64,000 nucleotides of DNA. Origin: Escherichia phage teqdroes. Location of the stretch: the sequence record NC_054932.1, one strand, 5' to 3'. Below, piece by piece: positions 1,511-60,001 of the stretch (the first letter of the stretch is position 1; each line of letters starts with the position of its first letter). The notes beneath the pieces are model-generated. The model saw only the letters and a list, made by a program, of their open reading frames with translations, did not search any database and was not told where the DNA came from. Both the position numbers and the translations under genes were made by a program.

Positions 1511-2938
1511 GTGGTAGAAATTATTCTTTCTCATCTCATATTTGATCAAGCTTATTTTTCAAAAGTTTGGCCATATATGGATTCAGAATATTTTGAAAGT
1601 GGTCCAGCTAAAAATACATTCAAATTAATTAAATCTCATGTCAACGAGTATCATAGCGTTCCATCTATTAATGCGTTAAATGTTGCATTAGAAAATAGTT
1701 CATTTACTGAAACAGAATATTCTGGTGTAAAAACACTTATTTCAAAACTGGCTGATTCTCCGGAAGACCACAGCTGGTTAGTAAAAGAAACAGAAAAATA
1801 TGTTCAGCAAAGGGCGATGTTTAATGCTACGTCTAAAATAATCGAAATTCAAACTAATGCTGAGCTTCCTCCGGAAAAACGAAATAAGAAAATGCCGGAT
1901 GTTGGTGCTATTCCTGACATCATGCGACAAGCATTATCAATTTCATTTGATAGCTACGTTGGCCATGATTGGATGGATGACTACGAAGCACGTTGGCTAT
2001 CTTATATGAATAAAGCTCGTAAGGTTCCATTTAAACTCAGAATTCTGAACAAAATTACTAAAGGCGGAGCTGAGACTGGAACACTGAACGTTTTAATGGC
2101 TGGCGTTAACGTTGGTAAATCATTAGGATTGTGTTCATTAGCAGCAGATTATTTACAGCTCGGACATAATGTTCTTTACATTTCCATGGAAATGGCAGAA
2201 GAAGTCTGTGCTAAGCGTATTGACGCTAACATGCTTGATGTTTCTCTTGATGACATTGATGATGGGCATATTTCTTACGCTGAATATAAAGGAAAAATGG
2301 AAAAATGGCGTGAGAAATCTACCCTTGGTCGTTTAATCGTTAAACAGTATCCTACTGGTGGAGCAGATGCTAATACATTTCGATCACTTTTAAACGAATT
2401 GAAGCTCAAGAAGAATTTTGTTCCAACAATCATTATTGTCGACTATCTAGGTATTTGTAAATCTTGCCGCATTAGAGTTTATTCAGAAAATAGTTACACA
2501 ACTGTTAAAGCTATCGCAGAGGAATTGCGTGCTCTGGCTGTTGAAACCGAAACTGTTCTTTGGACTGCAGCACAGGTTGGTAAACAAGCTTGGGATTCTT
2601 CTGATGTTAACATGAGTGATATCGCAGAATCTGCTGGTCTTCCAGCGACAGCCGATTTTATGCTTGCGGTCATTGAAACCGAGGAGCTAGCAGCTGCTGA
2701 ACAACAACTCATTAAGCAAATCAAATCACGATATGGCGATAAGAACAAATGGAATAAGTTTTTGATGGGCGTTCAAAAAGGAAATCAGAAATGGGTAGAA
2801 ATTGAACAAGATTCTACTCCAACTGAAGTGAGTGAGGTAGCAGGTTCACAACAGATACAAGCTGAGCAGAATCGCTATCAAAGAAATGAATCCACTCGAG
2901 CTCAGTTAGATGCTTTGGCAAATGAATTAAAATTTTAG
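1511..2938 (+). CDS. 41: gp41 replicative DNA helicase (DnaB-like)
   Basis: 475 aa, GTG start 5 nt after AAGGAG; Walker A-like GVNVGKS; matches T4 gp41 length and sequence. Confidence 0.95.
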   Translation: MVEIILSHLIFDQAYFSKVWPYMDSEYFESGPAKNTFKLIKSHVNEYHSVPSINALNVALENSSFTETEYSGVKTLISKLADSPEDHSWLVKETEKYVQQRAMFNATSKIIEIQTNAELPPEKRNKKMPDVGAIPDIMRQALSISFDSYVGHDWMDDYEARWLSYMNKARKVPFKLRILNKITKGGAETGTLNVLMAGVNVGKSLGLCSLAADYLQLGHNVLYISMEMAEEVCAKRIDANMLDVSLDDIDDGHISYAEYKGKMEKWREKSTLGRLIVKQYPTGGADANTFRSLLNELKLKKNFVPTIIIVDYLGICKSCRIRVYSENSYTTVKAIAEELRALAVETETVLWTAAQVGKQAWDSSDVNMSDIAESAGLPATADFMLAVIETEELAAAEQQLIKQIKSRYGDKNKWNKFLMGVQKGNQKWVEIEQDSTPTEVSEVAGSQQIQAEQNRYQRNESTRAQLDALANELKF

Positions 2939-2968
2939 TTTACAAGCTGACAAGACTATGGTATAGTA
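2938..2968 (+). promoter_or_regulatory. T4-type early promoter (GTTTAC -35, TATAGT -10)
   Basis: GTTTAC at 2938-2943 and TATAGT at 2963-2968; -10 lies between the 8-bp inverted repeat ACAAGACT/AGTCTTGT. Confidence 0.55.
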
Positions 2969-2996
2969 GTCTTGTTGGTTAAATGAGGAGATTGTT

Positions 2997-3179
2997 ATGG
3001 AATTGGTAAAGGTAGTTTTTATGGGGTGGTTTAAGAATGAAAGCATGTTTACTAAAGAAATCACAATGATGAAAGATGACGTTCAATGGGCTACTACTCA
3101 ATATGCTGAAGTTAATAAAGCATTAGTTAAAGCTTTCATTGATGACAAGAAAGTGTGCGAAGTGGATTGCCGAGGATAA
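2997..3179 (+). CDS. dmd: Dmd-like antitoxin (inhibitor of host RnlA/LsoA), 61.5 position
   Basis: 60-aa ORF directly downstream of 41 with GAGGAG SD; size and position match T4 dmd. Confidence 0.7.
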   Translation: MELVKVVFMGWFKNESMFTKEITMMKDDVQWATTQYAEVNKALVKAFIDDKKVCEVDCRG

Positions 3180-3180
3180 T

Positions 3181-3438
3181 ATGCATATTGTTTTATTTAA
3201 ACCTACTCCGTATAACGTCAGGAAAAATACTCAATTCAAAGCACTTATTGCAGATACGTGGGAATTGGTGTTAGATATTCCAACAGAAGAAAGTCCTCCA
3301 TTTGGTCGAGTGGAATTTATTAAGTTTGCTGTACGTCCTACGAAGAGGCAGATTCGTCAGTATAAAAGGTATTTTCGTAAAATCGTTAAGCTAGAGAAAC
3401 AGTTTGTAACATGTGATTACGCAGAAGTTTTAAAATAG
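3181..3438 (+). CDS. hypothetical early protein (61.4 position)
   Basis: 85-aa ORF from ATG 3181 with GAGGA SD, basic C-terminus; the ORF-track start at 3139 is TTG and overlaps dmd. Confidence 0.5.
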   Translation: MHIVLFKPTPYNVRKNTQFKALIADTWELVLDIPTEESPPFGRVEFIKFAVRPTKRQIRQYKRYFRKIVKLEKQFVTCDYAEVLK

Positions 3439-3793: not shown

Positions 3794-4426
3794 ATGATTT
3801 ATTATATGCACAAAAATCCACCGTTTAAATACGGTAAATTTCCTGATGCACAATGTTATAATATAACGCCTGATGAAAATAACCGTGGATATCTTATTGG
3901 CACAATTTTTGTAATTGTTAAAGATAACGAAATCGTTGCCTGGGCAGATTTTAAAGGTACAACATATGATGTTAATCCGGTGCCTTTCACATATTACAAT
4001 TTAATGGATTTGGCATACGATTATAATTGGTTTAATCATGACACTTTGGCTCATATTGAAGGTGTAGGATTTGATATTTCATATTCGGAATACACTTTAA
4101 GCCCTATGAGTCGAGCCCATAAAGAACCTGAATATTTTTCATTTAGGAAACGTGTAAACTTTAAACGCAGCACAGAGTATGTCGGTGGAATCTTTGTTAA
4201 AGATAATCGAATTATTCGTATTAATTATCCTTTGAGCGTTAGTCAAAAAGATATTGATGTTGATTTAGATTTCACTGAAAATAATATTAATAATATTGCT
4301 TCTGTGTATTTTGGTATCGATCACAAAATTGTAATATGTGGATATGAATTACCGTTTGAAGAACAGCCTAAAGTAAAAGTTTCTATTGACGATCAAATTT
4401 TTAATGCTTTTATGAATAAAGGTTAA
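3794..4426 (+). CDS. hypothetical protein, 61.2 position
   Basis: 210-aa ORF with internal repeated G-x-I-F/V-V-x-KDN segments; C-terminal IDDQIFNAFMNKG is shared with the next ORF. Confidence 0.6.
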   Translation: MIYYMHKNPPFKYGKFPDAQCYNITPDENNRGYLIGTIFVIVKDNEIVAWADFKGTTYDVNPVPFTYYNLMDLAYDYNWFNHDTLAHIEGVGFDISYSEYTLSPMSRAHKEPEYFSFRKRVNFKRSTEYVGGIFVKDNRIIRINYPLSVSQKDIDVDLDFTENNINNIASVYFGIDHKIVICGYELPFEEQPKVKVSIDDQIFNAFMNKG

Positions 4427-4427
4427 T

Positions 4428-4784
4428 ATGTATAGTTCTGAATTTTCATATTTAAAAATGGAAAAAATTTCATACGATTTTATAGATGAAAAGGTTTATT
4501 ACAGTTTCCATGAACCGCGTTTTAATAGTGAGGTTGGGTTTATTGTAGTAAAAGACAATTTCATTTTAAAGATATATTCGGCATTAAAGGATTTTCACTA
4601 CGAAAATATTAACCTAAAATTTGATAAAGAAAACGTTCGTAATTGTGCAGTAACAATTACAGGAAATAAAGGTACATGTGTTATGCTATCTGATGAAATT
4701 AATGATTTACTAAATGATGCAGAAAATATTACTGCGCCATCTATTGATGACCAAATTTTTAATGCTTTTATGAATAGAGGTTAA
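4428..4784 (+). CDS. hypothetical protein, 61.1 position, paralog of the preceding ORF
   Basis: 118-aa ORF ending IDDQIFNAFMNRG; start 1 nt after the previous stop. Confidence 0.55.
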   Translation: MYSSEFSYLKMEKISYDFIDEKVYYSFHEPRFNSEVGFIVVKDNFILKIYSALKDFHYENINLKFDKENVRNCAVTITGNKGTCVMLSDEINDLLNDAENITAPSIDDQIFNAFMNRG

Positions 4785-4952: not shown

Positions 4953-5981
4953 ATGTCATCAATACCTTGGATTGATAATGAGTTTGCATACCGTGCATTA
5001 GCTCATTTACCTAAATTCACACAAGTAAATAATAGTTCAACTTTTAAATTGCGGTTTAGATGTCCAGTTTGTGGAGATTCAAAAACCGACCAGAATAAAG
5101 CTCGTGGATGGTATTATGGTGATAATAATGAAGGAAATATTCATTGTTATAACTGTAATTATCATGCACCAATCGGAATATATTTAAAGGAGTTTGAACC
5201 TGATTTATATCGTGAGTATATCTTTGAAATAAGAAAAGAAAAAGGTAAAAGTCGTCCAGTAGAAAAACCTAAAGAACTTCCTAAGCAACCTGAGAAGAAA
5301 ATAATTAAATCTCTTCCGTCATGTGTTAGATTAGATAAACTGGCGGAAGACCATCCAATTATAAAATATGTAAAAGCTCGTTGTATTCCAAAGGATAAAT
5401 GGAAATATCTTTGGTTTACAACCGAATGGCCTAAATTAGTTAATAGCATAGCACCGGGAACATATAAAAAGGAAATACCTGAGCCTCGTCTTGTTATTCC
5501 AATTTATAATGCTAATGGAAAAGCTGAGTCTTTTCAAGGACGTGCATTAAAGAAAGATGCTCCCCAAAAATATATCACCATCAAAGCTTATCCTGAAGCA
5601 ACAAAAATTTACGGTGTTGAACGAGTTAAAGATGGTGATGTATATGTTCTAGAAGGACCCATCGATTCACTTTTTATTGAAAATGGTATAGCTATTACAG
5701 GTGGTCAATTAGACCTAGAAGTTGTTCCATTTAAAGATAGACGAGTGTGGGTTTTAGATAATGAACCTCGTCACCCTGACACTATCAAACGAATGACTAA
5801 ATTAGTTGATGCAGGAGAAAGGGTTATGTTTTGGGATAAATCTCCCTGGAAATCAAAAGATGTCAATGATATGATTAGAAAGGAAGGTGCAACCCCTGAA
5901 CAAATTATGGAATATATGAAAAATAATATTACCCAGGGGTTGATGGCTAAAATGCGGCTATCTAAATATGCTAAGATTTAA
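4953..5981 (+). CDS. 61: gp61 DNA primase
   Basis: 342 aa; zinc ribbon CPVCGDS…CYNCNYH; matches T4 primase. Confidence 0.95.
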   Translation: MSSIPWIDNEFAYRALAHLPKFTQVNNSSTFKLRFRCPVCGDSKTDQNKARGWYYGDNNEGNIHCYNCNYHAPIGIYLKEFEPDLYREYIFEIRKEKGKSRPVEKPKELPKQPEKKIIKSLPSCVRLDKLAEDHPIIKYVKARCIPKDKWKYLWFTTEWPKLVNSIAPGTYKKEIPEPRLVIPIYNANGKAESFQGRALKKDAPQKYITIKAYPEATKIYGVERVKDGDVYVLEGPIDSLFIENGIAITGGQLDLEVVPFKDRRVWVLDNEPRHPDTIKRMTKLVDAGERVMFWDKSPWKSKDVNDMIRKEGATPEQIMEYMKNNITQGLMAKMRLSKYAKI

Positions 5982-6178
5982 ATCAACCCAACTAAAGCAA
6001 ATGCTAAATCTACAAATGTATCAAGAGTAACTACTGGAATATTAACACCATGAGCAATAGCAATTGGTGATAAAACAAAATTCCAGAGTAAAATTCCTAT
6101 CATAGCAGAAATAGTAAAAGCTATACGTTTTTTATTACCTTTTATGGCATTAACAAGTGCCATTAATTTTTGTACCAT
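5978..6178 (-). CDS. hypothetical small hydrophobic protein, antisense to the early operon
   Basis: 66-aa minus-strand ORF; AAGGAGGA SD 5 nt upstream of its ATG; stop overlaps the gene 61 stop; two predicted hydrophobic helices. Confidence 0.45.
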   Translation of the reverse strand: MVQKLMALVNAIKGNKKRIAFTISAMIGILLWNFVLSPIAIAHGVNIPVVTLDTFVDLAFALVGLI

Positions 6179-6249
6179 GTGTCCTCCTTATTGCTTTATA
6201 TATTTATTGTATAATTAATCTACTAACCCATGAATTGAAAGGAAAAATA

Positions 6250-6768
6250 ATGGCATACTTTAATGAATGTTCACAACTGATTGAAGGCGCTGATAAAGCT
6301 CAAAATGAATACTGGGATATTCTCGGTGATGAAAAAGACCCGCTGCAGGTTATGCTTGATATGCAGAAATCTTTGCAGGTTCGTTTAGCTAAAGATAAAC
6401 CTGAATATAACCGTCATCCTGATGATTTGGCTACTGCCGGTGAAGTTGTTGATTGGCTACGTAATCAGAAAGACTATATTGATGATGAATTCCGTGAACT
6501 TCTGACTTCTCTTGGTGGTATGAGCAATGGCGAAAAAGATGCATCTGCTGTATGGAAACCTTGGAAGTCGCAACATGGTGAACGCCGTGAAACTCTGATT
6601 ACTGATTTGTCTCCGCAAGACCAGCTGGAAATTAAATTTGAAATGATTGATATTCTTCATTTCGTTCTGAATATGTTCCAAGGTCTTGGTCTTACTGCTG
6701 AAGAAATCTTTAAACTTTATTATCTGAAAAATGCAGAAAATTTCGCACGTCAAGACAGAGGTTATTAA
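6250..6768 (+). CDS. 56: dCTPase/dUTPase (gp56)
   Basis: Starts MAYFNECSQLIEGADKAQNEYWDILGDEKDPLQVMLDMQ; matches T4 gp56; the ORF-track start at 6157 is an upstream extension. Confidence 0.9.
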   Translation: MAYFNECSQLIEGADKAQNEYWDILGDEKDPLQVMLDMQKSLQVRLAKDKPEYNRHPDDLATAGEVVDWLRNQKDYIDDEFRELLTSLGGMSNGEKDASAVWKPWKSQHGERRETLITDLSPQDQLEIKFEMIDILHFVLNMFQGLGLTAEEIFKLYYLKNAENFARQDRGY

Positions 6769-7175
6769 TGGCTCGTTTAAATAAACGCCAGCTTAAGAAA
6801 GCCCGCAAGAAACGTATTGACCAGCTATTTAAAGATTATGACAAGGGGCTCGTATGTGAGCTCTTAACTAATCAGCTTCGTATGGTTGATTGGGTTGTAA
6901 AAGAAGGTCCTGACGAAATTTTTGTCAGTGAAGAAGCCTTAAAAATTAATTATAGAGCATTCAAAATGAAATTTGATTTTTATGCATGGCAAAAAGCCGG
7001 GAGACCGGCTAGTAGAGCATTTGGTTCTGATGGATATAATATTAGAGCCCATTGGAAATTTAATGCTCCAGAAGATTATTCTCCGGTAATTATTAACGGT
7101 GATGTTGTTATATTAACTAAAATTGGGTATTTTAACGTTCCGCGAGAATTTATTATAAATAGTCATGTAATTTAA
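6768..7175 (+). CDS. hypothetical protein
   Basis: 135-aa ORF, ATG overlaps the gene 56 stop (TAATG); basic N-terminus; occupies the slot between 56 and soc. Confidence 0.5.
   Translation: MARLNKRQLKKARKKRIDQLFKDYDKGLVCELLTNQLRMVDWVVKEGPDEIFVSEEALKINYRAFKMKFDFYAWQKAGRPASRAFGSDGYNIRAHWKFNAPEDYSPVIINGDVVILTKIGYFNVPREFIINSHVI
7154..7161 (+). promoter_or_regulatory. candidate late promoter (TATAAATA) for soc
   Basis: TATAAATA about 30 nt upstream of the soc ATG. Confidence 0.45.
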
Positions 7176-16743: not shown

Positions 16744-16959
16744 ATGAAACGTAAAATTGTTCAGAACTGCACTAATGACGAATTTGAAGATGTATTATTC
16801 GATCCAAATTTGGTAGTAGTTCAAAAGGAACACACCATCAAGTTTACTCACTTGACTTCGGTTTATGTGTATGAAAAGGTTGGTGATAAACAACCGATTT
16901 ACGGTGTATTCCGTGAAATCACTGAAGACGGTACAACTTACTGGAAGGAAATTTATTAA
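16744..16959 (+). CDS. hypothetical protein (71 aa; cef position)
   Basis: ORF with GAGGAAA SD. Confidence 0.4.
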
Positions 16960-17384
16960 TGGCTATTAGATTTGAAGTTAATAAATGGTATCAATTTAAA
17001 AATAAACAAGCTCAAGAAGCTTTTATTAAAGACCATACTGAAAACGGAATTTATGCACGACGTTTAGGTATGGAACCTTTTAAAGTTATAGATATTGACT
17101 ATCTTGGTCGTCCAACTAAAATTATGTCATCTACTGGAAGATTGGCATTATCCTCCGGTAAAGATATTTTGGATGAAGATTTTATTTGGCTTTCTACTAG
17201 CGAAGCTGAATTCTTTGATGAAGTTGAAAATCCATACCAGGCAGCTGAAGAGCAAGAGCAGGAAGAGAAAGAGCAAGAACAAATAGAAGATTTCACAGAA
17301 TTCCCGGTCATGAAAGTTACTATTGAAAATAATGAACATGCATGGTCCTTGTATCAGATGTTGAAAGCACATTTTAAGGAATAA
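16959..17384 (+). CDS. goF: GoF/ComC-alpha-like protein
   Basis: 141 aa with an acidic [12 protein letters not shown] stretch; size and position as T4 goF. Confidence 0.45.
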
Positions 17385-17386
17385 TT

Positions 17387-17563
17387 ATGCCAATGTATGA
17401 TTATAAATGCCAATCCGAAGATTGCGGGCATGAATATGAAAAAATTAAAAAGATTTCTGAACGAGAAAATGATGTTTGCCCTAAATGTCATCGTTTGTCT
17501 ACTCGTCGGCCTTCTGCTCCTAAGCATGTGAATGGTGGTTTTTACGACTTACTTAAAGGGTAA
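17387..17563 (+). CDS. zinc-ribbon protein (58 aa)
   Basis: Cys pairs CQSEDC … CPKC; not in the ORF track. Confidence 0.5.
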   Translation: MPMYDYKCQSEDCGHEYEKIKKISERENDVCPKCHRLSTRRPSAPKHVNGGFYDLLKG

Positions 17564-17565
17564 TT

Positions 17566-17937
17566 ATGTTTAAAATCGGTAAGAAATATTGCATTCGTGA
17601 AGGTGAAGAACAGAAATATCTACTTTCTGCTAGTAATAGGAATAGTTCTATTAATGTTGTAATATTGACTAGTGAATTTATCGTTGAAGATATGAAAGGT
17701 CATAATGTTATAATGATTAGTACAGCATCTGGAAATGATGGAAAAATTCTTCATAGTTGTCAGAGTAATGTTCTAATTTATGATGAAGAATTTGACTTCT
17801 TCGAAGAAGTCACAGAAGATTTTGATTTTGAATGCACTATTACTATGAAATCTGGCGACCCTCTTTCTTTTACAGTTAAAGATGAAAGAAGCCGTTTAAG
17901 AATTATTAGTCTCCTTCAAGCCATTAAATTTAAGTGA
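17566..17937 (+). CDS. hypothetical protein (123 aa)
   Basis: ORF tightly packed in the operon. Confidence 0.5.
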   Translation: MFKIGKKYCIREGEEQKYLLSASNRNSSINVVILTSEFIVEDMKGHNVIMISTASGNDGKILHSCQSNVLIYDEEFDFFEEVTEDFDFECTITMKSGDPLSFTVKDERSRLRIISLLQAIKFK

Positions 17938-18203
17938 AAATTATGAAATATGTTAATCGTTCTATCGCAGCATTAGTATTAGCAGTATCTTTAGTAGGAT
18001 GCACTGATGCTGATAATGCAACTAAAATTTTATCATCAAGTGGTTTTACGAATATTGAAATCACTGGATATAACTGGTTCGGTTGCTCTGAAAATGATTT
18101 CCAACATACTGGATTTCGTGCTGTTGGACCTACTGGGCAGAAAGTAGAAGGAACAGTATGTTCTGGGCTGTTCTTTAAGGATTCAACTATTCGTTTTAAA
18201 TAA
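17934..18203 (+). CDS. putative lipoprotein (89 aa)
   Basis: Signal peptide with lipobox LVGC; ATGA overlap with the upstream ORF. Confidence 0.5.
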   Translation: MKIMKYVNRSIAALVLAVSLVGCTDADNATKILSSSGFTNIEITGYNWFGCSENDFQHTGFRAVGPTGQKVEGTVCSGLFFKDSTIRFK

Positions 18204-31030: not shown

Positions 31031-31687
31031 TTATTTAGCCCTTCCTAATATTCTGGCCGCCTGAGCACATATTGATTCAAGGCGGTCATTACTTATATGA
31101 TCATTTCTATACCAGTACATGGTTATCGTTCCAGCATAGATATTATCCAAATTAAAATATGGACAACTGTACATGTAGTTTATTTCGGGAGTAGGCTTTT
31201 TAGTTGGTAAAAAAGCAAATTTTGAGTCAGAATAATAATGACGTCCATTTAAATGAACTGTATATTCATCCATAGTTTTATCAACAGGATATCCTCCAAG
31301 TGATTTTTCAGTTATTGTTGAAGGTAATCTTCCTTCGTATGCTATAATATCAACAAAATAGTTTAAGTTTTTAGGGCGGAAAGAATACACCGCACTAAAG
31401 TCTGCCTCAGATGATATATGAACTATCTGGAGTTGTTCCAGGGCGACAGATTCAAAGCGTGCATTTCTTTCCTTTTCAATAATTTCACTGTATGTTTCAT
31501 ACTTTGATTGCTTATAGTACTCAAAGAAACTATCTCCCCTATACCAAACAATCGCCATCATAAATAAAAGAATTACGACAGCTACCCGGGAAGCAAGAAC
31601 CTTCCCAGTAGCGTTATCTTTGAACAAGCGATCTAGAACACCAAACAGAATATCAGAGGGCGAAAATGATATTCTAGGTGCTGCCAT
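31031..31687 (-). CDS. t: holin T
   Basis: 218 aa; N-terminal TM segment then a large periplasmic domain; matches T4 T; SD AAGGAGGG. Confidence 0.9.
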   Translation of the reverse strand: MAAPRISFSPSDILFGVLDRLFKDNATGKVLASRVAVVILLFMMAIVWYRGDSFFEYYKQSKYETYSEIIEKERNARFESVALEQLQIVHISSEADFSAVYSFRPKNLNYFVDIIAYEGRLPSTITEKSLGGYPVDKTMDEYTVHLNGRHYYSDSKFAFLPTKKPTPEINYMYSCPYFNLDNIYAGTITMYWYRNDHISNDRLESICAQAARILGRAK

Positions 31688-43541: not shown

Positions 43542-43565
43542 TGCTTATTATAAATAGATTATAAT
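43542..43565 (+). promoter_or_regulatory. candidate middle promoter (MotA box TGCTTA plus TATAAT) with overlapping TATAAATA
   Basis: TGCTTA at 43542-43547, TATAAATA at 43549-43556, TATAAT at 43560-43565, upstream of gene 32. Confidence 0.45.
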
Positions 43566-59993: not shown

Positions 59994-60001
59994 TATAAAT
60001 A
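59994..60001 (+). promoter_or_regulatory. late promoter (TATAAATA) upstream of rIII
   Basis: TATAAATA immediately after the gene 31 stop. Confidence 0.55.

Follow-up and report, generated by a model that had tools for sequence, protein, structure and literature searches.

The junction of genes 61 and 56

In the 64,000-nucleotide stretch of Escherichia phage teqdroes DNA analysed here (NC_054932.1; hereafter the window), the gap between the DNA primase gene, 61, and gene 56 is 268 bp, and it holds a short open reading frame (ORF) on the opposite strand (Table 1). The window is Tequatrovirus (T4-like coliphage) DNA with 95–98% identity to RB51, RB68, wV7, SholemSchwarzbard and others, though it equals none of them exactly, and on the RB51 map it runs from 22.7 kb down to 1 and then from 168 kb down to 127 kb. 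The gene 56 product begins MAYFNEC and its T4 counterpart MAHFNEC. The peptide specified by the minus-strand ORF, MVQKLMALVNAIK…, reads in full MVQKLMALVNAIKGNKKRIAFTISAMIGILLWNFVLSPIAIAHGVNIPVVTLDTFVDLAFALVGLI.

An earlier, sequence-only reading of this DNA had estimated the interval at about 270 bp and had singled out the ORF, which is present in the ORF list, as a lone convergent gene with a stop overlapping that of gene 61. The description holds. All the genes around the ORF are on the plus strand (in the first 50 kb of RB51 the other strand has just two genes, the ORF and that of a homing endonuclease), and both stop codons fall within a single palindrome. The Shine Dalgarno sequence is strong, as had been said, but its distance from the ATG is shorter than the 5 nt then given. 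Longer antisense ORFs, of 95 and 98 aa, lie nearby inside the flanking genes, so the length of the ORF is not by itself beyond chance.

Table 1. Features at the gene 61–gene 56 junction (positions in the window)
Feature	Position	Strand	Source
Gene 61 (DNA primase, 342 aa), convergent neighbour of the ORF	4953..5981	+	ORF list
66-aa ORF, PHROG 2024 member (RB69ORF029w / RB32ORF030w family)	5978..6178	-	ORF list
TTAA, in which the stops of gene 61 (+) and the ORF (-) overlap	5978..5981	.	sequence
Weak terminator-like hairpin and T run, inside ORF codons 2-12	6144..6173 (hairpin 6144-6163)	+	
Shine Dalgarno AAGGAGGA, 3 nt ahead of the ORF ATG	6182..6189	-	sequence
T4-type middle promoter of gene 56: MotA box TGCTTTA 6192-6198, 11-nt spacer, TATAAT 6210-6215	6192..6215	+	
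Late-promoter-like box AATAAATA, T4 consensus TATAAATA with A at -13, 22 nt ahead of the ORF ATG	6201..6208	-	
Gene 56 (dCTPase/dUTPase, PHROG 173), no dam before it	6250..6768	+	

Conservation of the ORF and selection on its product

With tblastn the ORF is found in 691 phage records and is full length in 685 of them, and at the level of lineages it is conserved across at least eight genera. The identity of its protein to that of the window is 92–98% within Tequatrovirus, approximately 54% in Mosigvirus (RB69ORF029w of RB69) and approximately 46–52% in Gaprivervirus. A search with the Gaprivervirus protein, coupled with inspection of each locus, widened the family to Dhakavirus JS98, Moonvirus Merlin, Gelderlandvirus S16, Klebsiella phage R3_1 (Marfavirus) and two metagenomic lineages. 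The match to the PHROG 2024 profile is full-length (E = 3.5e-31, residues 2–66 against profile positions 1–65 of 65), and the 66 aa of the window protein fit the range of 61–69 aa among 108 relatives.

The manner in which the sequences diverge is that of a coding region. In eight comparisons within and between genera (Nei-Gojobori) dN/dS is 0.10–0.39, and in seven of the eight it is 0.10–0.27, with synonymous sites saturated in the comparisons between genera. The variable columns of the alignment are distributed 44/21/56 over codon positions 1/2/3. Across nine lineages with 20–70% identity, W32, N33, P38, G44 and P48 never vary and position 53 always holds an acidic residue; the window protein, with D53, has the resulting family pattern, W-N-x4-P-x5-G-x3-P and an acidic residue five positions on. 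The Shine Dalgarno core, AGGAGG or AAGGAG, is retained in all 11 lineages compared. As judged from the conservation, the codon-position pattern and dN/dS, the ORF is a genuine membrane-protein gene under purifying selection. On this point the sequence-only reading, with its proposal of a small membrane protein encoded convergently to gene 61, is upheld.

Alternatively, the ORF could be spurious and the interval non-coding, a spacer in which the gene 61 transcript terminates and which houses the gene 56 promoter. There is a plus strand terminator-like hairpin as well as a middle promoter (Table 1), a predicted terminator is annotated at the hairpin in SA20RB, and the classic T4 annotation has no ORF here. 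However, dN/dS is far under 1 with substitutions that track codon positions, and the frame, length and Shine Dalgarno sequence are retained between genera whose proteins are only about 25–55% identical. The interval has no Rfam match (E <= 1) and its RNA folding is unremarkable (z-score −0.5). The hairpin is present in Tequatrovirus only and absent from the other genera, and so it is not what conserves the ORF family; for the same reason the idea of a conserved terminator on the early strand within the ORF was rejected. A mere spacer is accordingly a most improbable description of the interval.

Constancy of place beside the primase gene

The ORF lies beside gene 61, and convergent with it, in at least eight T-even-type genera, T4 included; the arrangement was seen in T4, RB69, RB51, JS98, Merlin, S16, R3_1 and the lineages L018 and L021. 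The 4-nt overlap of the stops recurs in T4, RB69, JS98, Merlin, S16 and R3_1, and it is missing from L021 and Gaprivervirus RZ; in RZ a homing endonuclease gene stands between the ORF and gene 61. What lies on the far side of the ORF is more varied. It is gene 56 directly in the window, RB51, RB69, JS98, S16, L018 and L021; dam and then 56 in T4; a 181-aa ORF, dam and then 56 in T2; and small ORFs in Merlin and R3_1. The ORF is an ancient conserved T-even gene that keeps its place by the primase gene, whatever its other neighbour.

Relationship to dam

The DNA adenine methyltransferase gene of T4, dam, is at 16846–17625 (NC_000866), between 56 and 61, which is where the sequence-only reading had placed it. 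Equally correct was the observation that no methyltransferase-sized ORF is present at the junction: a Dam-homologous ORF of approximately 260 aa is absent from the 268 bp between 61 and 56, and tblastn with T4 Dam finds no homologue there or elsewhere in the 64 kb window (best E = 1.0). Nor is there a Dam homologue in bases 1–150000 of RB51, a phage with the same junction, and the window covers the remainder of the RB51 map.

From these observations it had been proposed that the phage lost dam and took on an antisense membrane microprotein in its stead. That T4 has dam between the two genes and the window lacks it is in keeping with such an exchange, but the comparison of the locus in T4 and relatives is not. 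The 309 bp gap between 61 and dam in T4 holds a copy of the ORF, and the T4 and T2 proteins, both encoded in the 61–dam interval, are 92–95% identical to that of the window. As T4 has the ORF alongside dam, the ORF was not gained in exchange for it, and this half of the proposal is refuted by the T4 sequence itself. Other dam carriers likewise hold the ORF beside dam, and the ORF occurs in genera that never show dam at the site. Nor does loss fare better. Among approximately 501 ORF-carrying Tequatrovirus records, the contiguous 61–ORF–56 junction is in 327 and T4-type Dam in 182, the two sets being near complementary, so that the order 61–ORF–dam–56 of T4 is the less common form and 61–ORF–56 is that of most records. 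Only the absence of dam from this junction and the rest of the window survives of the proposal, and an exchange is almost certainly not what happened.

In Tequatrovirus the dam-less 61–ORF–56 junction predominates, and in the other genera it is the sole state seen; no non-Tequatrovirus lineage examined has dam at the locus. By this distribution, the dam-less state is probably ancestral, and Dam looks like an insertion in the T4/T2 subgroup, or a presence/absence polymorphism, rather than something lost here. Another origin considered for the junction was a simple deletion in which dam dropped out between the short TTAA(A)TTAAT repeats found on either side of it in T4. The product of that event mismatches the junction sequence, and gene 56 is only 77.6% identical to that of T4 while the flanks are approximately 96% identical; on both counts an origin by deletion was rejected. 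The ORF is unconnected with dam, which is a separate cassette in a minority of Tequatrovirus genomes. The epigenetic consequence that had been foreseen, that there is no phage Dam methylation, is plausible, and would be common to most of the genus.

Expression

T4 early and middle transcripts are all of one polarity and late ones are of either (PMC2988020). The ORF runs against the direction of early and middle transcription, and so it would be transcribed only in the late mode; a minus strand sigma-70 promoter for it was looked for and not found. The late-promoter-like box upstream of it differs from the T4 consensus by the A at −13 (Table 1). Of the fifty late promoters listed for T4 (Geiduschek and Kassavetis 2010, PMC2988020), 32 match the consensus perfectly and nine carry A at −13; AATAAATA is the commonest variant. 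The T at −13 is poorly conserved in late promoters (Nolan et al. 2006, PMC1524935).

At the corresponding site RB69, JS98 and L018 also have AATAAATA, whereas T4 and T2 have GATAAATA, Gaprivervirus has CATAAATA, Merlin and S16 have TATTAAATA, and L021 has no box at this place. In the coliphage lineages the position at −13 is A, G or C and TATAAATA is never found at the ORF; the box is canonical in Klebsiella phage R3_1 alone, which sets it apart from T4 late promoters of the TATAAATA type. In 8 of 11 lineages NATAAATA ends 16–22 nt short of the ATG, and the sequence surrounding it is unalignable between groups. Within the window the heptamer ATAAATA is depleted approximately 2.7-fold, with 14 occurrences against 38 +/- 6 expected from dinucleotide-preserving shuffles. 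Only five ORFs of at least 50 aa have NATAAATA at −45 to −8, and apart from the minus-strand ORF these are soc, t (218 aa), 34 (1289 aa) and 36 (221 aa); seven further non-canonical NATAAATA sites are away from gene starts. Like these T4 late genes, the ORF has a strong ribosome-binding site with the late-promoter-like box spaced from it as usual, an AT-rich stretch after the box and a polarity permitted only to late transcripts. Unlike them, it has no place in a published list of late promoters: the HMM-derived list for RB69 has no site at ~16030, the position of the box there (Nolan et al. 2006, PMC1524935).

Taken together, these features suggest that the ORF is most likely a gp55-dependent late gene for an inner-membrane microprotein whose N-terminus is cytoplasmic. 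RNA polymerase with gp55 would transcribe it only late, from the predicted AATAAATA box, and the transcript would have a leader of roughly 16 nt with a very strong Shine Dalgarno sequence. A prediction of such late expression is a gp55-dependent start site near T4 17722.

The box overlaps another promoter. It sits within the spacer of the plus strand middle promoter of gene 56, an element annotated also in SA20RB; the T4 homologue of that promoter, P(M)16.53 or the oriA promoter, is annotated in X01416. On the minus strand there is no intrinsic terminator downstream of the ORF between 3400 and 6000, so the transcript probably continues antisense into gene 61. These two features raise the possibility that the main product is the RNA: a late antisense transcript into the primase gene, with the peptide secondary, that fires here inside the gene 56/oriA middle promoter and helps to shut off primase or origin transcription late in infection. 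[quoted passage not shown] Set against this are the purifying selection at the level of the protein and its invariant residues, the separation of the box from the gene 56 promoter by dam in T4 and T2, and the lack of unusual structure in the RNA, and a primary role for the RNA is considered unlikely.

The protein and its disposition in the membrane

The hydropathy of the protein is high from approximately residue 17 to its end. There are two hydrophobic stretches, as the initial inspection had noted, though only the first (approximately residues 19–42) has the length needed to span a membrane. In the AlphaFold2 model, which has helices at 2–12, 16–42 and 52–63 (pLDDT 77, from a nine-sequence alignment), the second forms a helix of 12 residues. 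For RB69ORF029w a single transmembrane segment at 21–41 has been predicted (Nolan et al. 2006, PMC1524935). In 108 relatives the net charge before the long helix is +1 to +5 and that after it 0 to −2, and by the positive-inside rule the basic N-terminal segment and the neutral or acidic C-terminal one favour an N-in, C-out orientation. The predicted topology is N-in and single-pass in the inner membrane, with a C-out end as opposed to a helical hairpin being a prediction from charge and model. The product would be inserted with its basic N-terminus in the cytoplasm and one transmembrane helix, and its short acidic hydrophobic C-terminal helix would be placed at the periplasmic face.

Small size, a location in the membrane and probable late expression are also attributes of holins, and the closest structure in BFVD, from the same family, is named ‘Holin’, a label that comes from the UniProt entry of one relative. 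That label has no support. Pfam holin families give no match even at E <= 10, there is neither an NCBIfam match nor a similar PDB fold, and the charged hydrophilic C-terminal tail is missing: the protein ends in a hydrophobic stretch (…LAFALVGLI), its C-terminal net charge is 0 to −2, and in the window protein no basic residues are present there. The genetic linkage is also not that expected, as the ORF is at 16.5 kb and the endolysin gene, e, at 65.5 kb in RB51, some 50 kb apart, and the phage already has holin T (31031–31687 in the window) with a canonical late promoter. Compared with class II holins and pinholins, the ORF product is alike in size, hydrophobic segments and probable late expression; it differs in that it matches none of their families, lacks a charged C-terminal tail, is unlinked to an endolysin gene and comes from a phage with a holin T of its own. 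That it is a holin or other lysis effector is very unlikely.

The invariant residues W32, N33, P38, G44, P48 and the acidic residue at 53 occupy the outer half of the helix and the dozen or so positions after it, and their location suggests binding to another membrane protein. The small bacterial inner-membrane regulators MgrB and AcrZ act by binding a larger membrane protein. There is a likeness in kind, as each has fewer than 70 residues, one transmembrane helix, and conserved residues in or beside it (no sequence or fold similarity to the ORF protein was detected, and the comparison is one of analogy, not membership). By this analogy the product may work through contact with a second membrane protein, in or at the outer leaflet, and the likeliest mode of action would be for it to bind such a protein on the periplasmic side at a late stage of infection. 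Candidate roles are in late envelope events, e.g. the timing of lysis or exclusion of superinfecting phage. A more specific proposal, in which the late inner-membrane function is lysis-inhibition signalling, superinfection exclusion or binding to a host envelope protein, possibly combined with antisense silencing of primase mRNA, is improbable as it stands.

Annotation and significance

The family is already known, as a hypothetical protein in hundreds of GenBank records and in PHROGs; public records list it as RB69ORF029w, RB32ORF030w and PHROG 2024, which are of the identical family and in the same convergent place beside gene 61. The ORF of the window abuts gene 56 as in RB69, RB51 and RB68, whereas dam intervenes in T4 and T2. 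The T4 copy, at 17738–17938, is absent from the annotation of NC_000866, of AF158101 and of the 1984 record X01416, and is annotated in OZ209057, an automatically annotated T4 record. The JS98 copy (NC_010105, 15343–15543) is also unannotated.

Pfam, NCBIfam, profile searches, and Foldseek against PDB and BFVD yielded no homologue whose function or fold is known. The ORF protein has no match in NCBIfam or, at E <= 10, in Pfam generally. A profile search of 1.84 billion representative proteins yielded six clusters only, all of the same phage family, and a wider one yielded 114, all from T4-like phages and unnamed except for one ‘Holin’ and one evident misnomer. Foldseek detected no similar fold in PDB; in BFVD it detected the family itself and two weak 63-aa phage proteins, one of them from Enterobacter phage CIP9. 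Searches of the literature on RB69ORF029w, T4 ribosome profiling and T4 reannotation turned up nothing relevant.

The best explanation of the whole, and a probable one, is that the junction carries a conserved late T-even inner-membrane microprotein gene that is unlinked to dam. For the window itself its significance is small, since the gene is a catalogued hypothetical one and the absence of dam is a common polymorphism. Two modest points are of use beyond it. The reference records of T4 and JS98 leave out this gene, which is under purifying selection in eight genera or more, and transcriptomic, proteomic and knock-down work built on the T4 and JS98 annotations will miss it. For T4, the ORF is a compact candidate for the study of late membrane events.

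The small ORF in other records and the edges of the dam cassette

The 66-aa membrane-protein ORF that converges on gene 61 is annotated in most relatives and in automatically annotated T4 records (OZ209057); the reference records of T4 and JS98 in which it is conserved but lacks annotation are listed in the table. Its stop codon overlap with gene 61, usual elsewhere, is broken in the Gaprivervirus vB_EcoM_RZ by insertion of a homing endonuclease gene between the two. In T4, short AT-rich repeats similar to each other, TTAAATTAAT and TTAATTAAT, can be read by eye at either end of the dam cassette.

Coordinates of features in the window and in related phages
Feature	Sequence	Position	Strand	Remark
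Homing endonuclease gene between gene 61 and small ORF	vB_EcoM_RZ locus (L015)	2372-3121		
Small ORF, conserved, unannotated	T4, NC_000866 / AF158101	17738-17938	+	
Small ORF, conserved, unannotated	JS98, NC_010105	15343-15543	+	
AT-rich repeats flanking dam, TTAAATTAAT and TTAATTAAT	T4 locus (L002)	~4215-4235 and ~3340-3355		By-eye reading
Adjacent 61.2-like ORFs, 210 and 118 aa	Window	3794-4426 and 4428-4784		PHROGs 3781 and 4122
135-aa ORF between 56 and soc	Window	6768-7175		End-to-end matches to two small PHROG families
Two canonical TATAAATA boxes away from an obvious gene start	Window	43549-43556 and 59994-60001	+ (both)	

Duplicated and fused ORFs

The two 61.2-like ORFs match each other and have in common the C-terminal motif SIDDQIFNAFMN(K/R)G, and therefore appear to be tandem paralogues. 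The ORF between 56 and soc looks like two small genes fused, within a variable cassette: residues 1-60 match PHROG 5782 and residues 67-135 the separate family PHROG 5773, each end to end, the corresponding parts are two separate genes in SA20RB, and RB51 lacks window segment 6782-7139.

Late-promoter boxes

Across the whole window there is a strong depletion of ATAAATA, the heptamer of late promoters, with 14 sites where shuffles give 38 ± 6. Of the six canonical T4 late-promoter boxes, TATAAATA, four immediately precede soc, t, 34 and 36. One of the remaining two lies 83 nt ahead of an ORF of 302 aa; close to the other, no start is preceded by a Shine-Dalgarno sequence.

Divergence of gene 56

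DNA identity to T4 is only 77.6% in gene 56 (window 6250-6768), while it is ~96% in both flanks. The homing endonuclease gene segF, which follows 56 in T4, is absent. Marker exclusion by SegF at gene 56 is a known phenomenon, and the divergence of this gene, together with the absence of segF, fits it.
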